Source of the DNA: a virus
Lineage: Duplodnaviria; Heunggongvirae; Uroviricota; Caudoviricetes
IMG/VR virus record: IMGVR_UViG_2925908680_000001
Strand: one strand, 5' to 3'
DNA: 64,000 bases
In this document: one piece after another, positions 97 through 45,400 of the stretch
Layout: every line of letters starts with the position of its first letter
Position numbering within the stretch: the stretch's first letter is position 1
Made by a program: the position numbers and the translations under genes
Notes under the pieces: generated by a model
Databases searched by the model: none
What the model saw: only the letters and a program-made list of their open reading frames with translations
What the model was told of the DNA's origin: nothing

Positions 97-173
97 GGTG
101 GTGTAGCTCAGTAGGATAGAGCAGCAGCCTTCTAAGCTGTCGGTCGGTGGTTCGAATCCACCCACCATCGCCA
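97..173 (+). tRNA. tRNA-Arg (anticodon TCT)
   Basis: Cloverleaf by eye: 7-bp acceptor (one GU), anticodon loop cttctaa, T-loop ttcgaat, encoded CCA; resembles E. coli argU. Confidence 0.85.
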
Positions 174-178
174 CTTTA

Positions 179-265
179 GGGGAGTTAGTCCGTAGGGGTA
201 GCGGGGTAGACTGTAAATCTACTGTCATTGCGACTCGGGTGGTTCGACTCCATCACTCCCCACCA
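179..265 (+). tRNA. tRNA-Tyr (anticodon GTA), class II with long variable arm
   Basis: Perfect 7-bp acceptor ggggagt/actcccc, perfect anticodon stem gtaga/tctac with loop ctgtaaa, long variable arm, T-loop ttcgact, CCA; D-arm less regular. Confidence 0.7.
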
Positions 266-269
266 AATT

Positions 270-345
270 GCCGGTTTAGCTCAGTTGGTAGAGCAGTCGC
301 TTTGTAAGCGAATGGTCAGCGGTTCGATCCCGTTAACCGGCACCA
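270..345 (+). tRNA. tRNA-Thr (anticodon TGT)
   Basis: Acceptor gccggtt/aaccggc, D-arm gctcagttggtagagc, anticodon loop tttgtaa, T-loop ttcgatc, CCA. Confidence 0.85.
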
Positions 346-353
346 ACACAACA

Positions 354-427
354 GGTAAGAGCATTTGTAGAGTTCGACTCTCTACCGTGGGCTTTTTCCC
401 GCGATGCGAGCCATAAATGCTCTTACC
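354..427. repeat. Inverted-repeat element 1 (13-bp arms ggtaagagcattt / aaatgctcttacc) enclosing a T-arm-like hairpin
   Basis: Arms at 354-366 and 415-427; inner hairpin gtagagttcgactctctac; followed by conserved motif gttgtgatgaagtgc. Confidence 0.6.
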
Positions 428-574
428 GTTGTGATGAAGTGCAGCTCTTTGAAGCAACCAGAAGATAAGCATCTGGCTTCACAACATAAACCGCAGGAAC
501 GACCAATAAACGGTAGTCCGTATGGAGAACACCCCGTTGAGGAAGAGGCCTGGCCGGAACCGTAACCGGCACTA

Positions 575-664
575 CAATGTTGAGAACACTGGCGTAACGG
601 GGTCATATCCCAATCTACGAATAAATGTTGCGTTGCAGCGTGACAACCAGTGTTCTCAACATTG
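575..664. repeat. Inverted-repeat element 2 (perfect 18-bp arms, 54-bp spacer)
   Basis: caatgttgagaacactgg at 575-592 and exact reverse complement at 647-664; followed by attgtggtgaatgcgc. Confidence 0.7.
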
Positions 665-799
665 TGGTGAATGCGCAGGCTGATGCGCGAAAGACATTGC
701 AGCTATTGCGGAAAAGAGCTGTTCGGCGGGGCAATTAAACGCCCGTGAGAGTCTGAAATAACCGCAAGCCGGAGATCAGCACCGGTCGCCACAATAACG

Positions 800-886
800 G
801 GAGAGTAGGGAGCATGGTGCTCAAGCGGTCTTGAAAACCGTCCCATTGCGCAAGCGATGATGGTTCGATTCCATTACTCTCCGCCA
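800..886 (+). tRNA. tRNA-Ser (anticodon TGA), class II, atypical A at position 8
   Basis: Acceptor ggagagt/actctcc, anticodon stem gcggt/accgt with loop cttgaaa, long variable arm, T-loop ttcgatt, CCA; D-arm irregular. Confidence 0.65.
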
Positions 887-893
887 GTGCAAC

Positions 894-1011
894 GTTAAGA
901 GTATTTGGCTAATTAAGCGAATGCCGGAAGCAGAACCGGATCACCAAATGCGTACAGGCGTCATCGCCGCCCAGCCAGCCAAGTGCTCTTACCATTGCGG
1001 TGAATGCGGCT
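894..1011. repeat. Inverted-repeat element 3 (imperfect arms) plus conserved right-end motif
   Basis: gttaagagtatttgg at 894-908 vs ccaagtgctcttacc at 979-993; followed by attgcggtgaatgcggc, the same motif family as elements 1 and 2. Confidence 0.5.
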
Positions 1012-1369
1012 AAGCGCACGCGGAACAGTTAAAACAATCCTCCTTAGTGGTTAAGTCAAACATCCCGGCGTTAATTGTTAACTGGTTAACGTCACCTGGA
1101 GGCACCAGGCACCGCAATCTAATAAAGTTTCAAGCAATGGAGTTTTTGTTGTCAGACTTCAGATATAGATGGTTGTGGAAGGAGAGCCTGTGCATAGTGC
1201 AGTTATTTCTTCCGCTATTTGTCTGCTTTGTCATGCTTCCTGAGCTGAAATACGCAATTTCAGACACTTTAAGCACTATCGTTACTTTTGTGTTTTATCT
1301 TTACTTTGATTACTTATTGAGCACTAAAATCAATGAATTATCCGAGGAAATGCAAGGTGGCTGTAAGTG

Positions 1370-1498
1370 ATGAATTTTTGGGCGTTTGCCGATAAGAACC
1401 CTGGTTGGACATTTTTATTTCTGCTGGTGGTTGCATATGGGGTCGAGCAAGCGGCAAAAGCCTTACGCGGTTCTGGCAAAAAGCGTAAGCGGAATTAA
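1370..1498 (+). CDS. Small hydrophobic peptide (42 aa), hypothetical
   Basis: Hand-translated ORF MNFWAFADKNPGWTFLFLLVVAYGVEQAAKALRGSGKKRKRN: one predicted TM segment and a basic tail; below the ORF-track size cutoff. Confidence 0.3.
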   Translation: MNFWAFADKNPGWTFLFLLVVAYGVEQAAKALRGSGKKRKRN

Positions 1499-1507
1499 CA
1501 GTAATCT

Positions 1508-1583
1508 GGCCCTTTAGCTCAGTGGTTAGAGCAGGCGACTCATAATCGCACGGTCACCGGTTCAAATCCGGTAGGGGCCACCA
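1508..1583 (+). tRNA. tRNA with CAT anticodon, most like tRNA-Ile2 (ileX type)
   Basis: Near-identical to E. coli ileX as recalled (ggcccnttagctcagtggttagagcaggcgactcataatcgc...), CCA encoded; Met cannot be excluded. Confidence 0.85.
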
Positions 1584-3113: not shown

Positions 3114-3506
3114 ATGGAACAAATCAGCAGCGCAGAAATTGCGGATATCATGATCAGGGCTGACTGCTATCTGACAGTCACTGAAATTACCACTCTCGCC
3201 AAAGAAAAATACCCTCATCTCCATGTTTCACGAGTAAGTGTAACTAACATCATTCGTCATTTTGTTCGTTCAAGCAGGGCAATCTGTGAGCTGGATGATC
3301 GTGTGTATCCACGAAAATACTGGCTACATGGTCTGAACGGATATCAGTTCAAGGTGCGCGGGCGCACGCCTGAATACGGTAGCTTACTGGTTAAAAACTG
3401 TAGCAGGAAATCAGTCGAACAGGCGCGAAAAGAGCAACGAGAGCTGGTGGACATGGCGAATAAGCTGTGGAATGCCGCCGTTAAAAAGCGTGGTGTTGCT
3501 TTATGA
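3114..3506 (+). CDS. Hypothetical protein; positional analog of P1 late-promoter activator Lpa (unverified)
   Basis: ORF track; immediately upstream of pacA as lpa is in P1; operator-like motif upstream. Confidence 0.5.
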   Translation: MEQISSAEIADIMIRADCYLTVTEITTLAKEKYPHLHVSRVSVTNIIRHFVRSSRAICELDDRVYPRKYWLHGLNGYQFKVRGRTPEYGSLLVKNCSRKSVEQARKEQRELVDMANKLWNAAVKKRGVAL

Positions 3507-4867
3507 GTCTGGTTAATTGGGAGGAGCACCGCGCCCGCTTTATAGCGTTGCGTGAAGAAAAAGGGATCACTGTAAAGGAATACTGTGAGGAGCATGGCCT
3601 TAGCTTCAATACAGCCAGAAAGCATCTCAATATGAAAAAAAATGAGGTGCGGTCGCAGGTAAAGACAACAAAAAAAAGCACCAAATCACCTGAAAAAAAA
3701 CGGGCGGGAAGAGCAACAAAAAAGCTGGAAGAGGGTGCAGAAAAAACAAAATTTACAGAAATTGACAATTCTCAGGGCGCAGGTTCTTTCCGAAGTATGC
3801 CGAGAAAGAAAACTTCGGATCATGAAAATAATGCAAATAATAACAATGAGATAAAAGAATCTGTCAGGAGATCATTGCGCGAAAAAATGGCGAAAATGAT
3901 CCCCGAAGAAGATAAAAGCGCCCCAAAAATTGAGGGATCTTCTGCAATGATCCCTGACGGTGCTGTGCAGCGTGCCACATTGCCCACTACGAATGTGGCT
4001 CGCGATATGATGAAGAACGGCGCAGAAGAACACCTGCGGTTAGCAATTCAAATGGCGCAAGAGCGCGCACTTCAGTATCAAAGCATTGTTGATCAGGAGG
4101 CCGAACGTCTACAGGCGGAAATAGACGCCTTGGGCGATAAAGAGCCAGAAGGAATGCACCCTGGGCAGCGCCTTCTCGGTCTAATCAGTGACGCGGCCTA
4201 CTACATGAATGATTTTATCAGTAGGTTGGCAGCTATATATCAGTCCGAACAAAAGCTGCGACAGGGGGATGAAAAGCTTCGTCAGAGCGCTCGCCAGCAA
4301 GCATTCAAAGAGGCTGAGGCCAGAGAAAAACTCGAATTAGCACGCCTACAGGCCGAACAGCGTGGCAAAGAGATTGAATATCGCATTGGCGCTGACGCAC
4401 GCGCAGCCAGAGTTATCGCCGCCGCTATACGTATGCGTGAGCGCGAGGAACTGGATGATATCGGTGTTGCTGAATACATCGAGCGCCAGGGGGTCAGCGT
4501 CCCGGCTATCCTCGCGGCGCGCGCGGCGAAAGCTATCACTCTTCTCGAACCACCTGTTTCTGACGTCAATGATGTTGATGATGAACAGCTGGACAAAGAG
4601 GCAAGGGAGTTTGCAACGCTTCAGGCTAACCATCCGCAATGGCTGGCAGAGCGCCGGGCGGATGTGGCAACCATTGTTGAAGAATTGGGGTGCGGAGATT
4701 ACGATCGCAATGGCGAGCGTAAAGCTGGAGAATTCGAGGCCAACGACGAAGAGCTGGATATTGACCCTTCGGCAACGGCTGAAATTTACGGTGATTATGA
4801 TGTATCTGATGCAGGGTATGACGCCGGAGATGATGATATCGCGATAGAACCGCCGGAGGATGATTAA
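3503..4867 (+). CDS. pacA: Terminase small subunit, PacA-like
   Basis: ORF track; overlaps start of the large terminase; basic N-terminus and acidic C-terminal tail; synteny with P1 pacA-pacB. Confidence 0.55.
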   Translation: MSLVNWEEHRARFIALREEKGITVKEYCEEHGLSFNTARKHLNMKKNEVRSQVKTTKKSTKSPEKKRAGRATKKLEEGAEKTKFTEIDNSQGAGSFRSMPRKKTSDHENNANNNNEIKESVRRSLREKMAKMIPEEDKSAPKIEGSSAMIPDGAVQRATLPTTNVARDMMKNGAEEHLRLAIQMAQERALQYQSIVDQEAERLQAEIDALGDKEPEGMHPGQRLLGLISDAAYYMNDFISRLAAIYQSEQKLRQGDEKLRQSARQQAFKEAEAREKLELARLQAEQRGKEIEYRIGADARAARVIAAAIRMREREELDDIGVAEYIERQGVSVPAILAARAAKAITLLEPPVSDVNDVDDEQLDKEAREFATLQANHPQWLAERRADVATIVEELGCGDYDRNGERKAGEFEANDEELDIDPSATAEIYGDYDVSDAGYDAGDDDIAIEPPEDD

Positions 4868-6375
4868 TGGCTGGCGGGCGCAAGATTAAATGCGTCACCA
4901 GCGATCCACGCTGGCGCGATATGGTAATCAAATACCGCTACAACTTTACCCAGGCTGTTGTCGATATTTTTGGGATGTTCCCCTCCCACCAGCAGCAGCA
5001 GATCATTCAGTCAGTGCAGGAAACGGGGAGTAGGACGACCGTCACGTCCGGACACGGAACGGGGAAGTCGTCCCTTACCGCGATGTTGCTGTTGATTTTT
5101 ATGATCCTGTTCCCCGATGCCCGTGTCATCATTGTTGCTAACAAGATAGGCCAGGTAAAAACAGGCGTATTCAAATACGTTAAACAGTATTGGGCGAATG
5201 CAGTTAAGCGTCATGGGTGGTTGCAGACCTATTTTGTCCTCTCTGACACCATGTTTTATGAGCGCTCCCGTAAGGGGATTTGGGAAGTTCTCTGCAAAGG
5301 TTATCGACTCGGCAACGAAGAAGCGCTGGCGGGGGAACACGCGGCACATTTGCTTCTAATTCTGGATGAAGCATCTGGTATATCTGATAAGGCGATCGGC
5401 GTAATGACCGGTGCTCTTACTGAAGAAGATAACCGGATGTTGATGCTATCCCAGCCAACAAGGCCAAGTGGTTATTTCTACGATTCGCACCATTCTCAAG
5501 CAAAAACCCCAGACAACCCGAAAGGGATCTGGACAGCAATTGTTCTTAACTCGGAAGAATCACCGTTCGTCACACCACAATTCATCAAGCAGAAGCTTCT
5601 GGAATATGGTGGGCGCGATTCTATTGAGTATATGGTCAAGGTGCTTGGTCAGTTCCCACGAGAAATTAACGGCTATTTGCTTGGTCGTGATGAATGCGAT
5701 CGCGCTGCTCGCCGCAAGGTGTTGTTGGAGAAAAACTGGGGATGGGTGGCAACGGCTGACGTTGGTAATGGGCGAGATAAGTCGGTCCTCAACATCTGCA
5801 AGGTATCTGGTCACAGGGATAAGCGGCGCGTTGTTAACTTTAAGGTAATGGAGATGCCTGGCACTATGGACCCATTGGCCTTTGCTGACTTTATATATAA
5901 CGAATGTACGCCGGAAAAATACCCGAATATAACAATCGCGGTTGATGCCGATGGTTTTGGTTCTGATACGTGTGCGCAGTTGGTGCGTCGTGGTGCGAAC
6001 CCGGTACGTATTCGGTGGGGAAAACCCATGTTTGCGAACAAAGACAGGGAGCGATTTGTTAATCAGCGTGCCTACGCAAATATTATGGCGCGTGATGCCA
6101 TAAAGTCAGGGCGTATGCGGATAGACAGTGACCCAAAAACGGCAGAGCAAGCGTCAAAAATCCCCTTTTTACTGAATGAGGAAGGGAAAATGGCGATGAT
6201 GCGCAAAGAGCACATGCGGCAAAAGCTAAACATCAAATCGCCTGACCGATGGGATACCTACTGCTTCACTATGCTGGTGGACTATGTGCCTGCTAATGAA
6301 GATATTGGTGCCGAAATGGCAACTTTCCGAGATCAGGTTCTGGCGGATATCGAAATGCCAGATCTGGATATATAA
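4867..6375 (+). CDS. pacB: Terminase large subunit, PacB-like
   Basis: Walker A SGHGTGKSS and Walker B LLLILDEASG in the translation; 502 aa. Confidence 0.85.
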   Translation: MAGGRKIKCVTSDPRWRDMVIKYRYNFTQAVVDIFGMFPSHQQQQIIQSVQETGSRTTVTSGHGTGKSSLTAMLLLIFMILFPDARVIIVANKIGQVKTGVFKYVKQYWANAVKRHGWLQTYFVLSDTMFYERSRKGIWEVLCKGYRLGNEEALAGEHAAHLLLILDEASGISDKAIGVMTGALTEEDNRMLMLSQPTRPSGYFYDSHHSQAKTPDNPKGIWTAIVLNSEESPFVTPQFIKQKLLEYGGRDSIEYMVKVLGQFPREINGYLLGRDECDRAARRKVLLEKNWGWVATADVGNGRDKSVLNICKVSGHRDKRRVVNFKVMEMPGTMDPLAFADFIYNECTPEKYPNITIAVDADGFGSDTCAQLVRRGANPVRIRWGKPMFANKDRERFVNQRAYANIMARDAIKSGRMRIDSDPKTAEQASKIPFLLNEEGKMAMMRKEHMRQKLNIKSPDRWDTYCFTMLVDYVPANEDIGAEMATFRDQVLADIEMPDLDI

Positions 6376-9281: not shown

Positions 9282-9754
9282 AAACTTATTACCCATCTCT
9301 GAATTGTTACCCGTCTTCCTATCCAGAATTGTCCGGGAAGCTGTTAGCTCTATTAGCTAAAGCACCTACGGAATGGTTTAAGCCAGTCGTTATTAATCCG
9401 CACTTCCAGGATTACGGATCTGTTCGTACTCGTAACGAACTCAAAAACCTACTGGCGCATGGATTCATTCGACACCGTGCCGGGAAAGGCTATCAGTTAG
9501 CGATTGCGCCAGAAGAGGCCGTGCGGCTATTCGCATATCGTGACAGCCAGACAAAAGCTCGGGTAATAGCTCAAATACTTCATAACGGCAGCACCTATGC
9601 CCGCCAGTTTGGCGGCGACACGTCGCAGTTCTTGCGGGCGGTGCGATCGCTGGAGGAGCAAGGAGTTATTGAAAGTTCCTGTCTTCCTGTTCCTACCGTT
9701 CCACATATCAAACGTCGGGTTTACACCTTCACGCAGAGAGCTAAAAAACTATGA
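9278..9754 (+). CDS. Hypothetical protein
   Basis: ORF track; GTG start overlapping upstream stop. Confidence 0.45.
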   Translation: MKTYYPSLNCYPSSYPELSGKLLALLAKAPTEWFKPVVINPHFQDYGSVRTRNELKNLLAHGFIRHRAGKGYQLAIAPEEAVRLFAYRDSQTKARVIAQILHNGSTYARQFGGDTSQFLRAVRSLEEQGVIESSCLPVPTVPHIKRRVYTFTQRAKKL

Positions 9755-10245
9755 TTTACGTAAAAGTGAAACGCCTACATCCGGCAGCAAAACTTCCAGC
9801 TTATGCCACCTCCGGATCGGCGGCGATGGATTTTGAGGCTGTTGAAATAACACCATGCGTCGATAGCAATGGTGAAATTTCCTCAAGCTGGTGGGTGCAT
9901 ACCGGACTGGCTATGGAGATCCCGCCCGGCTGGTGTCTGAAACTCTATCCGCGCTCCGGGTTGGGTTGCAAAAAACATACCCGCCTGGCTAACTGCGTAG
10001 GAATTATCGACTCCGATTATCGCGGTGAAATCATGGCAAAACTGATTGCTGATCCCGGCGGGGAAGGCGTTTGCCTCAAGCCTGGAATGGCTGTTATGCA
10101 AGGCATTTTTGAGCGTGTTGAACAAGTCTCACTAGTCGAGGTTGAGGAACTCAACGAAACGGAACGTGGTGCTGGTGGCTTTGGTAGCACATCGGAAGGC
10201 CACTTTGAAATTAAGCGTTCACCGCTTCAGTACGAAAAGTTATAA
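9751..10245 (+). CDS. dut: dUTPase (deoxyuridine triphosphatase)
   Basis: Trimeric dUTPase motifs GIIDSDYRGEI and RGAGGFGSTS in the translation. Confidence 0.85.
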   Translation: MIYVKVKRLHPAAKLPAYATSGSAAMDFEAVEITPCVDSNGEISSSWWVHTGLAMEIPPGWCLKLYPRSGLGCKKHTRLANCVGIIDSDYRGEIMAKLIADPGGEGVCLKPGMAVMQGIFERVEQVSLVEVEELNETERGAGGFGSTSEGHFEIKRSPLQYEKL

Positions 10246-10259
10246 GCAGAGAAAAGACT

Positions 10260-10910
10260 ATGAATAACATGGCAACGAAAGAGCTTTTTAAGGTCCTTCC
10301 CAAATACAAAGCTCACAAAAACGTTAGTGCATCGAAAATCAAAAATGTTGTTATTTTCGGAGTAACTGATGACCCACTTTGGGGCTGCATCGAACTCGTT
10401 GAACCCAAAGGGGCAACAGTTTGTGTTGACGCAATTTTTTTACAAAAACACCGACCAAAAACTGGCGGGTATCTGATCGTTTATGAAAACGGTTATCTGT
10501 TCTATGCCCCGGAGAAACCATTTGAGCAATGCTATGGCCTGGTTAACGACGCCTCCGAAAATGGGGTATCGCTCAGCATTGAAGGTCACAATGGGGTGAC
10601 ATTCATTACAGCCAGGGACGTAACTATTGCTGTCGGTGGCATCATTACCACACAAGAAGAAATCGACCTTGAAGCAGCCGACTTTTCTGACGCGCTAATG
10701 TGGCTGAAAGAAGGAAAAAATGTAGCTCGACGCGAGTGGAAAGGCGAAAAGCAATTCTGCTGGTTAGTTCTCGCTGGGAGCGTCAATTTACATGACATTC
10801 AGGTTCCTTATGGTGACCATTTTGTGTTGAAAGATGCACAAAATATAAACAGCGTTTGGTTGCCGTCTGTTGATGATTTACTGGCTTGTGACTGGTTTGT
10901 AGTGGAGTGA
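10260..10910 (+). CDS. Hypothetical protein with C-terminal DUF2829-like domain
   Basis: C-terminal FSDALMWLKEGKNVARREWKG ... WLPSVDDLLACDWFVVE fits the DUF2829 signature as recalled; about 120-aa N-terminal extension. Confidence 0.55.
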   Translation: MNNMATKELFKVLPKYKAHKNVSASKIKNVVIFGVTDDPLWGCIELVEPKGATVCVDAIFLQKHRPKTGGYLIVYENGYLFYAPEKPFEQCYGLVNDASENGVSLSIEGHNGVTFITARDVTIAVGGIITTQEEIDLEAADFSDALMWLKEGKNVARREWKGEKQFCWLVLAGSVNLHDIQVPYGDHFVLKDAQNINSVWLPSVDDLLACDWFVVE

Positions 10911-10916
10911 TTTGAC

Positions 10917-11693
10917 ATGGAAAGCACCAAAACAATTCAATACCGCTTGCGTAATGGCCTGCTGGTGGCTGTTAACGCCGACATGTCACTGCCGTTTGAC
11001 ACGATTGAACGCACTATCATGACGTATCTCGGCTTTAATGAAGAGCTGAATGAAGAGCATGGCGTAGCTATATGGAGTGATGCAGACAGCGGCGTTCGTC
11101 GTTACATCACCGCCAGGGGCAAAGACTACTCTCTGGAAGAACTGTTTGCCCTTGCGCAGTCTTTCGAATGTGTAGCATTAGACCTGTTTAATGATCCTGC
11201 TATAGCGCAACGACTTATACGCGAGCTTGGGCTATCCGTTACACCAATTATCTTTAAAAATGGCAGCCTAACTGGCACATGGCGCGTAGAACGCATCTCA
11301 AACTACCTTCCATATAACCGACAGTTAAATGGAGTAATCTCCGGCGTTAATCAGCCCGTAGCGTGTGAAAATGTAAACCTGGTTGTCGCTGTTTTGGCAA
11401 CCGCATGTCGTGTTATCGGTTTGGCTAAACAGGCATTTATTCATTTCCCAAATGGTGCAGAAGGTAGCGCAGAGATTATCGCGTGTGATTTCGAATTTAC
11501 CTGGATGCTACGCGAATATCTGGACCAAACAGTATTCCGTGCCGAAGAACTGGATATGTATATCACGTCAACGATTCCAGACGATGTGCGAGCTGAAGCA
11601 ATCGCTACAGCCAGGGCGAAATGCCGTGCGGCGATTGCAGAACGGGCCAAAGAAGAACAGTCCAATGATACAGCGGCAGAAGAGGTGAAATAA
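10917..11693 (+). CDS. Hypothetical protein
   Basis: ORF track; followed by an intrinsic terminator. Confidence 0.55.
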   Translation: MESTKTIQYRLRNGLLVAVNADMSLPFDTIERTIMTYLGFNEELNEEHGVAIWSDADSGVRRYITARGKDYSLEELFALAQSFECVALDLFNDPAIAQRLIRELGLSVTPIIFKNGSLTGTWRVERISNYLPYNRQLNGVISGVNQPVACENVNLVVAVLATACRVIGLAKQAFIHFPNGAEGSAEIIACDFEFTWMLREYLDQTVFRAEELDMYITSTIPDDVRAEAIATARAKCRAAIAERAKEEQSNDTAAEEVK

Positions 11694-11697
11694 CAAA

Positions 11698-11727
11698 AAG
11701 CCCGCTTGGTATGGCGGGCTTCTTTTC
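11698..11727 (+). terminator. Rho-independent terminator
   Basis: gcccgc-ttggtatg-gcgggc stem-loop followed by ttcttttc. Confidence 0.7.
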
Positions 11728-11923
11728 AAATACTGGAAGCACTTTGTCTGCTACCAAGCATTCTCTGTTTAAGCACAACCATTTCCTGACGGCATAACAC
11801 AGCAATAGCGGTCCTGGCACCAATTTGCTTACCAATCAGGTATTGCTTTACCTCGCGGCGACTCACGCCATCAAGAAGCATCTTTAACGCTTCACGGGAC
11901 AATTTGTTGTATTTGCGTGCCAT
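11726..11923 (-). CDS. Small hypothetical protein, possible HTH
   Basis: ORF track frame with ATG at 11923 (MARKYNKLSREALK...). Confidence 0.35.
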   Translation of the reverse strand: MARKYNKLSREALKMLLDGVSRREVKQYLIGKQIGARTAIAVLCRQEMVVLKQRMLGSRQSASSI

Positions 11924-11927
11924 TAAT

Positions 11928-12203
11928 CTACTCCGCAGAACCATACAATCTACGTAGCGTGGTAGCAGTAGATGCAGATATCGCCCTTAAAACCTCCTCC
12001 TTACTTACATCACTGCGGGAGAGGATTTCAGAAGGCGATATTTCCTTTAACGACTTTTGCTTCTCTTTGCAGTTCTCGACCAGTTCCGCAGGAATAACAA
12101 ACCTGCTATCAATCGGCACAAGTTCATCAAGCGTTTGTTTGGGTACGTTAAACGTAGGATTCTTGAACACCGCAGATTCGGTTCTTAAGTTAATTTTCGA
12201 CAT
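11928..12203 (-). CDS. Hypothetical protein with Doc-like C-terminal tail
   Basis: C-terminus ...EEVLRAISASTATTLRRLYGSAE parallels the Doc C-terminus ...[19 protein letters not shown] encoded just upstream. Confidence 0.45.
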   Translation of the reverse strand: MSKINLRTESAVFKNPTFNVPKQTLDELVPIDSRFVIPAELVENCKEKQKSLKEISPSEILSRSDVSKEEVLRAISASTATTLRRLYGSAE

Positions 12204-12222
12204 TGTTTCGTAACTCCACTAC

Positions 12223-12603
12223 TCAAGTCTTGGAACCATATAGTTCACGTAGCTTTTCTGCGACTGAAGATACGGCGATTTCACCAGTCGCAGCCCCTAC
12301 AGTAAGGTCTGCCAGTTCAGGTGAATCAAATACCTGCACCCCGTTACGGCGTAGAAATAGCAGCGCACTGTTTAGCGCGGTACGCTTATTGGCATCATTG
12401 AATATATGCCCTCTCGCTGTAGCCACCAGGTAGGTGGCGGAGACTTCGAAAAGGTCGGTGATCTCTTCGTAGGCAACTCTGGCCTGAACTCTCCCGATAA
12501 TGGCCTCTGCCCTGCCCGGATCTGACATGCCAGGCAGGCCGCCGTAGCGGCTTATATTCGCATCATGAAGCGCAATAAGTTCTTCCGGTGATATATGCCT
12601 CAT
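12223..12603 (-). CDS. doc: Doc toxin (Fic/Doc family kinase)
   Basis: 126 aa; I recognise the P1 Doc sequence pattern; coupled to phd. Confidence 0.9.
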
Positions 12604-12824
12604 TATCGGTTAACCAGTTCCTTGTTGGTGGAGTCCAGGGTGTCAAACAGGGATGCAAATTCAGCATCCAGCGCCGCTTTTTTGTAGGCTTCGAAAGTAG
12701 ACTTGCTGACAATTACTGCTGGCTCACGGCCTCTGCGGGTGATTTCAACCTCTTCCCCGGCTTCAACATTGTTGAGCACTTCAGAAAGGTTGCCGCGCGC
12801 GGTACGGAAGTTAATGGATTGCAT
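12603..12824 (-). CDS. phd: Phd antitoxin
   Basis: 73 aa from [39 protein letters not shown]...; stop overlaps doc start. Confidence 0.9.
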
Positions 12825-12896
12825 AAACACCTCGTGTACTCGTTATGTGTACACAATTATAAACCTCACAGGCATAAAGCACCAGCCCTTTGCAGC

Positions 12897-13286
12897 TTAA
12901 ATAACCGGACAATCATCAAACTCCCCAATTCGGGCATCATTGATGACATGAGTGATCACACCAAAAACAGCATTACTGCCCGTGCATCCATCGTCATCTA
13001 CTGGTAACGCCTCTTTCTTCCCGGTGCTTAAATCCTCCAGGTGCTGGCGCGGATACTTCCTGTATCTCTTTATGCGATATTCACCCTCCATAGCGCAGAC
13101 AAGTAGCGAACCATCAACCGGAGTAAGTGAGGAATCGACCACCAGCAAAGCACCCTGCAATATTCCCTCACGGTGATGGCTATCAGCTGCCCGCATGAAG
13201 TAGGTTGCTGATGGATGCCTGATTAGTTGCTGATCAAGAGAAATTCGGCTTTCAACATAATCCGCCGCAGGAGAAGGGAAGCCCAT
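12897..13286 (-). CDS. humD: UmuD-like protein (HumD homolog, S24 peptidase family)
   Basis: 129 aa; UmuD-prime-like sequence; LexA box directly upstream; humD-phd-doc synteny as in P1. Confidence 0.75.
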   Translation of the reverse strand: MGFPSPAADYVESRISLDQQLIRHPSATYFMRAADSHHREGILQGALLVVDSSLTPVDGSLLVCAMEGEYRIKRYRKYPRQHLEDLSTGKKEALPVDDDGCTGSNAVFGVITHVINDARIGEFDDCPVI

Positions 13287-26342: not shown

Positions 26343-26446
26343 AATACTGACTGTTGCGCCCTGGCATTATCGTGGGGTATATTTCTACGGCACCTTAGAA
26401 AAACGGGTGCCGGGATTGGAACCCCGGATAATGCAAAAGGCGACAC

Positions 26447-26470
26447 AGACGCCGAAAGCGTCTTTTTTTG
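26447..26470 (+). terminator. Rho-independent terminator
   Basis: gacgc-cgaaa-gcgtc followed by ttttttt. Confidence 0.65.
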
Positions 26471-26499
26471 TGTCATGCCATCGCACAGCCATACGTAGC

Positions 26500-26625
26500 G
26501 TTTAGCTCAGAGATCAATGGTAGTGCTGGCTGGGCTGCCGAAAGGCAGGCCGGTTCCCTTTTGCGCCGGTAGTTCCAACCCAGTCAGTGCTACCGCCATT
26601 GAGATTGGAACCTCACGCGGTAGCT
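26500..26625 (+). ncRNA. Putative c4-like antisense RNA / target region of immunity module 1
   Basis: Structured leader upstream of icd; ggttccaa segments complementary to ttggaacc near the icd RBS; by analogy to P1 immI. Confidence 0.3.
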
Positions 26626-45081: not shown

Positions 45082-45289
45082 AATTTGAATTTTCGAACAT
45101 AAATAATAAAATAAATCATCAAAAATTTGATGTTGATCTTCCATGTTTTCAGGCTTATATTCACGCCGTCGTAGCAAATTCTGCGACCGGGTTTAGCAGC
45201 CTGAATGATTGTGCGGACAACCGCAGATTTCCGATATTGCGGTATTTTTGTGTCCGTAAACCGCGTTACGCCCGAATTATGGTGGGGCG

Positions 45290-45400
45290 TGATGGGGAGG
45301 CTTCGGCCTGCTGGTTTCACAATCGCCAGTCTGCTAACCCCGTCACGTCCTGCCACCCGTTTAGCAGCGGGTAGCAGGTTGTTAAACCTGATTGTGAGGC
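45290..45400 (+). ncRNA. Putative c4-like antisense RNA / target region of immunity module 2
   Basis: tcacaatc (45317-45324) complementary to gattgtga (45390-45397) at the icd RBS; ctgctaacc (45331-45339) complementary to gtttagcag (45359-45367). Confidence 0.35.

Follow-up and report, generated by a model that had tools for sequence, protein, structure and literature searches.

A chimeric reading frame between doc and pdcA in a P1/D6-like phage-plasmid and the insertion that probably produced it

The window, that is the whole stretch of 64,000 nucleotides analysed here, is a P1/D6-like phage-plasmid. Its list of open reading frames gives the minus-strand gene order humD–phd–doc–ORF91–pdcA, in which phd (73 residues), doc (126 residues) and the 91-residue reading frame that follows them (ORF91) are present as the first-pass annotation had described them. 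The features of the locus are listed below.

12897–13286, minus strand: humD, with a Peptidase_S24 match
12831–12896, minus strand: phd promoter/operator region (Pphd), between humD and phd, recognized by its resemblance to P1 Pphd
12603–12824, minus strand: phd antitoxin gene, 73 residues from the ATG at 12824 (PF02604)
12223–12603, minus strand: doc toxin gene, 126 residues, whose body is of P1 type and whose 3' end is not (PF02661, TIGR01550)
12223–12295, minus strand: replacement doc 3' end (doc nucleotides 309–381), delimited by allele comparison
12204–12222, minus strand: doc–ORF91 spacer of 19 nucleotides with GGAG at 12214–12217, from sequence inspection
11928–12203, minus strand: ORF91 as a whole, 91 residues, from the open reading frame list
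11988–12203, minus strand: ORF91 codons 1–72, orphan coding sequence, from database searches and codon usage
11961–11987, minus strand: ORF91 codons 73–81 (RAISASTAT), diverged part of a displaced P1-type doc 3' end
11928–11960, minus strand: ORF91 codons 82–91 and stop codon (TLRRLYGSAE), original P1 doc 3' end
11726–11944, minus strand: pdcA homologue, 72 or 65 residues depending on the start chosen (phrog_3345)
11695–11724, minus strand: intrinsic terminator after pdcA, an 11-bp stem (six GC pairs) followed by a T run

Elsewhere in the window, five tRNA genes lie at its start (97–1583, plus strand; Arg-tct, Tyr-gta, Thr-tgt, Ser-tga and Met-cat). Two separate matches to the C4 antisense RNA occur at 26390–26600 and 45155–45360 on the plus strand (76.7 and 70.5 bits), one just preceded by isrK and the other by a c4 a1/b1 target element, so that one P1/D6-like element has two immunity-I-like loci. 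Downstream of pdcA (9751–11724), the window resembles phage D6 and not P1, with convergent dUTPase, DUF2829-like and isaA-like genes and a bidirectional terminator in place of pdcB-lpa-pacA. The doc–ORF91–pdcA cassette therefore stands here in a backbone unlike that of most other carriers.

A Pfam profile search assigns the phd product to the Phd/YefM family (PF02604, E = 9.9e-14). The open reading frame list starts the gene at a GTG at 12830, two codons before the ATG, and residue 42 is a serine where other alleles have an alanine. The phd stop codon overlaps the doc start at 12603 (ATGA). The interval 12815–12905 is identical to the annotated P1 Pphd at 88 of 91 positions, and both the TATAAT box (−10) and the GTGTACAC-type palindromes are unchanged. 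The doc product matches PF02661 (E = 3e-9) and TIGR01550 DOC_P1 (E = 6e-38; 129.7 bits against a cut-off of 38.65), with the HIFNDANKR motif at residues 66–74. The locus thus has the hallmarks of a type II Phd/Doc module: a Phd/YefM antitoxin gene directly upstream of, and overlapping, the toxin gene; a Fic/Doc-family toxin with the motif H-x-F-x-[DN]-[AG]-N-K-R; and a promoter with Phd operator palindromes, through which autoregulation is predicted. These family matches agree with the earlier description of phd and doc as canonical, but doc is not canonical throughout, since its last 73 nucleotides (309–381) are identical to P1 and D6 at only 50 positions (68%).

Megablast comparison with phage records returned P1, P7, SJ46, RCS47 and D6 at about 95–96% identity, always in two or three separate pieces that together covered 82% of the query; this pattern first pointed to additional DNA in the window. 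Alignment with P1 (L001) and D6 (L002) reduced this to one 295-column gap in the doc 3' end: near-identity extends through phd and most of doc and resumes from the last P1 doc codons into pdcA, and the 295 extra bases fall inside the last ~20 codons of doc relative to both phages. As doc is directly followed by pdcA in P1 and D6, the two genes overlapping in P1, ORF91 sits on DNA that is absent from those phages. A repeat finder detected a 21-nucleotide direct repeat (D1) that pairs the end of ORF91 with the end of the resident doc at a spacing of 295 nucleotides.

The resident doc is a mosaic gene, and comparison of alleles indicates that its end was taken from a different natural doc allele or lineage. 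Nucleotides 1–308 are identical to P1 at 304 of 308 positions, whereas nucleotides 309–381 agree with the doc gene of Salmonella plasmid pGMI14-002_2 at 66 of 73 positions and with that of pKFu022_2 at 71 of 73; at the protein level, six of the last 18 residues differ between the window Doc and P1 Doc. The pGMI14-002_2 allele has a ten-residue stretch in common with the window Doc in this region, but it is followed by neither ORF91 nor pdcA and its divergence from P1 begins earlier, at about doc nucleotide 270. Because the variant C-terminus is also found in a related natural allele, we argue that it is presumably tolerated in a Doc that is predicted to be toxic through EF-Tu phosphorylation and to be neutralised by Phd. 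The addiction function of phd-doc should likewise be unaltered by the insertion. Within PLSDB, the variant doc tail was found only together with the insert, and a protein search with this tail returned eight fragments only and no new context.

Two other arrangements in this part of doc came to light. The pGMI14-002_2 gene (L005, 2001–2381) represents a third natural doc allele, identical to P1 at 75 of 113 positions after nucleotide ~270; it is the last gene before a terminator that occupies the place of pdcA, and doc genes of this type, seen as an 86% match, are common to about 18 plasmids. In Doc fragments from Salmonella Typhi (P0009, P0010), an internal deletion joins ...VFDSPE directly to ISVSSVADTLRRLYGSAE, which is another rearrangement in the same part of the gene.

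The last codons of ORF91 derive from doc. Its final 33 nucleotides are identical to the P1 doc end at 32 positions, and the preceding 27 match P1 doc nucleotides 319–348 at 19 positions with a 3-nucleotide gap (one codon lost), a similarity with a probability of about 3e-5 after correction for gap placement; the next 30 nucleotides upstream agree with P1 doc at the chance level (9/30). The same two stretches match the end of the window's own doc at 20/33 and 13/27. BLASTP aligned ORF91 with P1 Doc over 15 residues, 12 of them identical (E = 1e-5), at a score reached by none of 2000 shuffles, whereas the window's own Doc gave no BLASTP match and a weak Smith–Waterman score of 37 (shuffle fraction 0.0135). 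The tail of ORF91 being closer to P1 doc than to the adjacent doc end, we identify it as the original end of the gene and the end of the resident doc as a substitute. ORF91 accordingly reads as 72 orphan codons followed by 19 doc-derived codons in the doc frame, and the duplicated doc segment is limited to about 60 nucleotides in these alignments.

These results confirm the Doc-like C-terminus that the first-pass annotation had noticed in ORF91, but not the longer parallel that it drew upstream. The VIPAELVENC stretch resembles Doc at the chance level (DNA score 18, with shuffles averaging 17.6; fraction 0.43–0.46), and once the last 19 residues are taken away the best protein alignment left between ORF91 and Doc lies elsewhere and is not collinear (shuffle fraction about 0.02), so that extended Doc homology was rejected. 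An 11/14-nucleotide match (D2) between 'SPSEI' of ORF91 and 'ATGEI' of doc was judged to be at the chance level and is not collinear. The proposal of a second doc remnant fused to new sequence is therefore borne out for the fusion and not for a second whole copy, given the short length of the duplication.

The two halves of the displaced tail have diverged unevenly from P1. The first carries about eight changes in 27 nucleotides, and the changes in codons 73–81 are almost all non-synonymous; the second carries one in 33, and LRRLYGSAE is retained exactly. Because of this unevenness, a single recent event or crossover is not a sufficient explanation. The tail may come from an unsampled third doc allele; the event may be older, with the pdcA-proximal part held P1-like by selection or by repeated homologous exchange; or mutation may have occurred at the junction. 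In the doc-derived helix of ORF91, one residue is lost relative to Doc and V110 and V113 are replaced by alanine, which would shift the helical register between the two halves.

The first 72 residues of ORF91 are without relatives in the collections searched. An exhaustive phmmer search of 1.8e9 protein representatives found only the query itself, and a word-indexed search of 5.8e9 proteins retrieved only near-identical copies in the same context, as did low-stringency blastn against phages and plasmids, megablast against E. coli genomes and back-translated scans of GTDB genomes and IMG/VR. The novel part has no homologue in Pfam, NCBIfam, PADLOC or PDB sequences, and no PADLOC defence family matched ORF91 at E ≤ 1. 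The entire protein matches phrog_31462 (E = 6.6e-62, residues 1–91 on profile positions 1–91); this family and RefSeq WP_000036093.1, a hypothetical protein, are the same as ORF91 over the full length, and P1-like plasmids of E. albertii and E. coli carry the annotated protein.

Several identities were considered for ORF91 and discarded. An alignment with PdcA, a comparison that the first-pass annotation had proposed, reveals no homology (BLASTP E = 1.2 over 10 residues), and PdcA is encoded by the next reading frame. A Phd/YefM antitoxin was rejected on the grounds that BLASTP gave no alignment at E ≤ 100 and that PF02604 was not matched. ORF91 has no Fic/Doc match in Pfam or NCBIfam and no catalytic motif, its similarity to Doc being confined to the last 15–19 residues. 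We also rejected the insert as an RNA element, as no Rfam family matched it and its folding z-scores (+1.2 and +0.1) were no better than those of shuffles on either strand.

The insert nevertheless has several properties of coding DNA. ORF91 fills it exactly, starting at an ATG with GGAG 10 nucleotides upstream, a long spacing. We trained a log-odds model of codon usage on 48 long reading frames of the window. With it the novel part scores 0.167 bits per codon, the best of its six frames; this value lies above 100% of off-frame windows and at the 21st percentile of 73-codon windows taken in the true frame. The GC content of the insert segment 11983–12222 (240 nucleotides) is 43%, compared with 50–52% in phd and doc (52% in doc). 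The dN/dS ratio of about 0.3–0.4 is derived from six or seven substitutions and is not significantly below 1 (P = 0.14–0.20). An antisense frame is open for 98 codons over ORF91; we rejected it as a real gene in view of its lower codon score and lack of homologues. An AlphaFold model computed with no alignment has low confidence (pLDDT 62, pTM 0.25) and depicts residues 1–38 as coil, followed by three helices.

The gene downstream of ORF91 is homologous to P1 pdcA and D6 orf112, and its product matches phrog_3345 at residues 8–66 (E = 3e-42). The start annotated in P1 corresponds to the ATG at 11944 (72 residues), within the doc end, and the start preferred by gene callers and by the PHROG profile is the ATG at 11923 (65 residues), seven codons later. 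The last two codons of the displaced doc end, GCG GAG, provide a GGAG (11931–11934) 7 nucleotides before the ATG at 11923. With either start, the doc 3' end is the predicted translation initiation region of pdcA, and an insertion that left pdcA expressed therefore had to retain it. A terminator search detected nothing comparable to the terminator at 11695–11724 at the doc–ORF91 or ORF91–pdcA junctions, the other minus-strand candidate being one weaker 6-pair stem inside doc, and a sequence scan found no promoter consensus or terminator within the insert. The simplest reading is that phd, doc, ORF91 and pdcA would form one transcript under Phd/Doc autoregulation.

The locus closely follows the phd-doc-pdcA-pdcB operon of P1 in gene order, in its promoter/operator and in the phd–doc overlap; in both, a doc-type reading frame ends where pdcA begins, and the window Doc has kept HIFNDANKR. 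It differs from that operon by the 295 bp inside the doc 3' end, by the additional chimeric gene of 91 codons between doc and pdcA, and by what comes after pdcA: as in phage D6, a terminator and an isaA-like gene in convergent orientation are found where P1 has pdcB.

The ORF91 allele is rare and confined to one position. In PLSDB, it was present in 10 of about 980 plasmids matching the query, always at the same place; three of 5,426 complete E. coli genomes carried it, all on plasmids, and none of 24 P1-like phage records did. The exact ORF91 protein is indexed in 816 blocks of an assembly collection and was present in 24 of the 24 contigs read. Among the loci read, 16 carry the frame whole, and it is intact in every one of them; they are 11 aligned full-length loci, which represent five nucleotide haplotypes, and L003, L008, L015, L017 and L018; one copy, in a 1,956-bp contig (P0002), is frameshifted. 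The 5' part of doc is variable among ORF91-bearing loci (10 doc haplotypes), and the variant doc tail and ORF91 move among loci as a unit. The backbones comprise P1-like ones with pdcB-lpa, the D6-like window and E. albertii plasmids. In the last of these (L003, p2RM9976, 3305–5000; L015, 1–2981), an insertion sequence with HTH and DDE_3 transposase reading frames, adjoining a large inverse autotransporter/invasin gene, stands in place of phd and the 5' half of doc; an 88-residue doc remnant is left, and ORF91, pdcA and pdcB are intact.

We propose that ORF91 is a chimera made by insertion and a translated passenger gene whose Doc-like tail is baggage, an explanation to which, taken as a whole, we assign a probability of about 70%. 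The comparisons show the course of the insertion. In the P1-type arrangement, pdcA overlaps the doc end. Recombination placed 295 bp within the final ~20 doc codons, and this DNA brought in a substitute doc 3' end, the 19-nucleotide spacer with its GGAG and about 216 nucleotides of foreign coding sequence. As the substitute end comes from another natural allele, Doc remains full length. The old P1-type doc 3' end was displaced downstream, where it continues to supply the pdcA ribosome-binding site and start context, and the foreign sequence, open in a frame running into the old doc frame, yielded the chimeric gene of 91 codons. ORF91 would share a transcript with phd, doc and pdcA, driven in the plasmid-prophage state by the promoter that Phd/Doc autoregulates and running to the terminator at 11695–11724. 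Its product may be an accessory, 'moron-like' small protein with a modelled disordered N-terminal third and helical C-terminal part, and its tail, most likely a recombination leftover, would be historical baggage kept for pdcA expression and not a functional Doc mimic. Moron-type genes of temperate phages resemble ORF91 in being small inserts of lower GC content in a lysogen-expressed operon, present in a minority of near-identical genomes; ORF91 departs from them in that the searches revealed neither a promoter nor a terminator belonging to it and in being fused in frame to a fragment of a neighbouring gene.

The insert could instead be a recombination scar with no function, open by accident between the ATG and the old doc stop, ORF91 then being no gene at all. 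Its orphan status in every database searched, a dN/dS ratio not significantly below 1, the open antisense frame, the weak structure prediction with 38 N-terminal residues as coil and the existence of the frameshifted copy P0002 are all compatible with such a scar. We nonetheless find it rather unlikely, since codon usage is gene-like in the ORF91 frame and scores lower in the antisense frames, the frame fills the insert exactly from an ATG with GGAG, it is intact in all five nucleotide haplotypes of the 11 full-length loci, and it survives where phd-doc has been destroyed. The segment might also be the remnant of a site-specific mobile element that targeted the doc 3' end with a copy of its own and was mostly lost later. 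Where integrating elements insert into a tRNA or protein gene, they do so at its 3' end and bring a copy of that end with them. The two doc ends do begin at about doc nucleotide ~310–320 and flank the insert as imperfect ~60-nucleotide direct repeats, and the incoming copy keeps the target gene intact. Against this, repeat and family searches found no inverted repeats or transposase at the insert, no integrase or att-like core was found, and no collection searched contained a longer version of the insert. A single crossover moreover predicts reciprocal hybrid repeats, whereas here the left and right copies already diverge, both mutually and from P1, ahead of the putative crossover. Other P1-like plasmids carry the replacement tail as a natural doc allele, which fits ordinary homologous exchange. 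We accordingly consider an origin from a mobile element very unlikely.

ORF91 might otherwise belong to the addiction module as a third component and, through its Doc-derived helix, bind Phd, Doc or a Doc partner and tune toxicity or autoregulation. The tail follows the doc reading frame with LRRLYGSAE unaltered, ORF91 comes directly after doc in the operon, and the almost wholly non-synonymous changes in codons 73–81 could reflect adaptation. The similarity to Doc nevertheless extends over only 19 residues, with no Fic/Doc motif and no similarity to Phd, and the lost residue, the two valine-to-alanine replacements and the shifted helical register predicted from them argue against such a role. 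Exact conservation of the last 33 nucleotides is more simply explained by the ribosome-binding site and start of pdcA. ORF91 also persists on an E. albertii plasmid that lacks phd and the catalytic half of doc, and about 99% of the matching PLSDB plasmids do without it. We regard such a modulator as highly improbable, and a role of ORF91 as a Doc-tail mimic is unlikely on these sequence comparisons. Equally far-fetched is the idea that ORF91 arose recently as a chimeric gene and was drafted into P1 addiction as a third player, its helix engaging Phd or Doc and altering toxin release, conditional cooperativity or plasmid stabilisation. Were ORF91 to modulate Phd–Doc, it would be a natural toxin-fragment regulator, a piece of toxin exapted as modulator; nothing here points that way.

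The ORF91 region is a minor variant of the well-known phd-doc module. It offers a clean, datable case of mosaic recombination in phage-plasmids by which one gene comes to lie in the end of another that nevertheless stays unbroken. It also exemplifies a chimeric orphan gene built from foreign sequence and a displaced fragment of a neighbouring gene, the fragment being retained because it carries the ribosome-binding site of the gene downstream. For annotation, about 1% of matching plasmids encode a 'hypothetical protein' between doc and pdcA; this protein is not PdcA, nor is it a paralogue of Doc.
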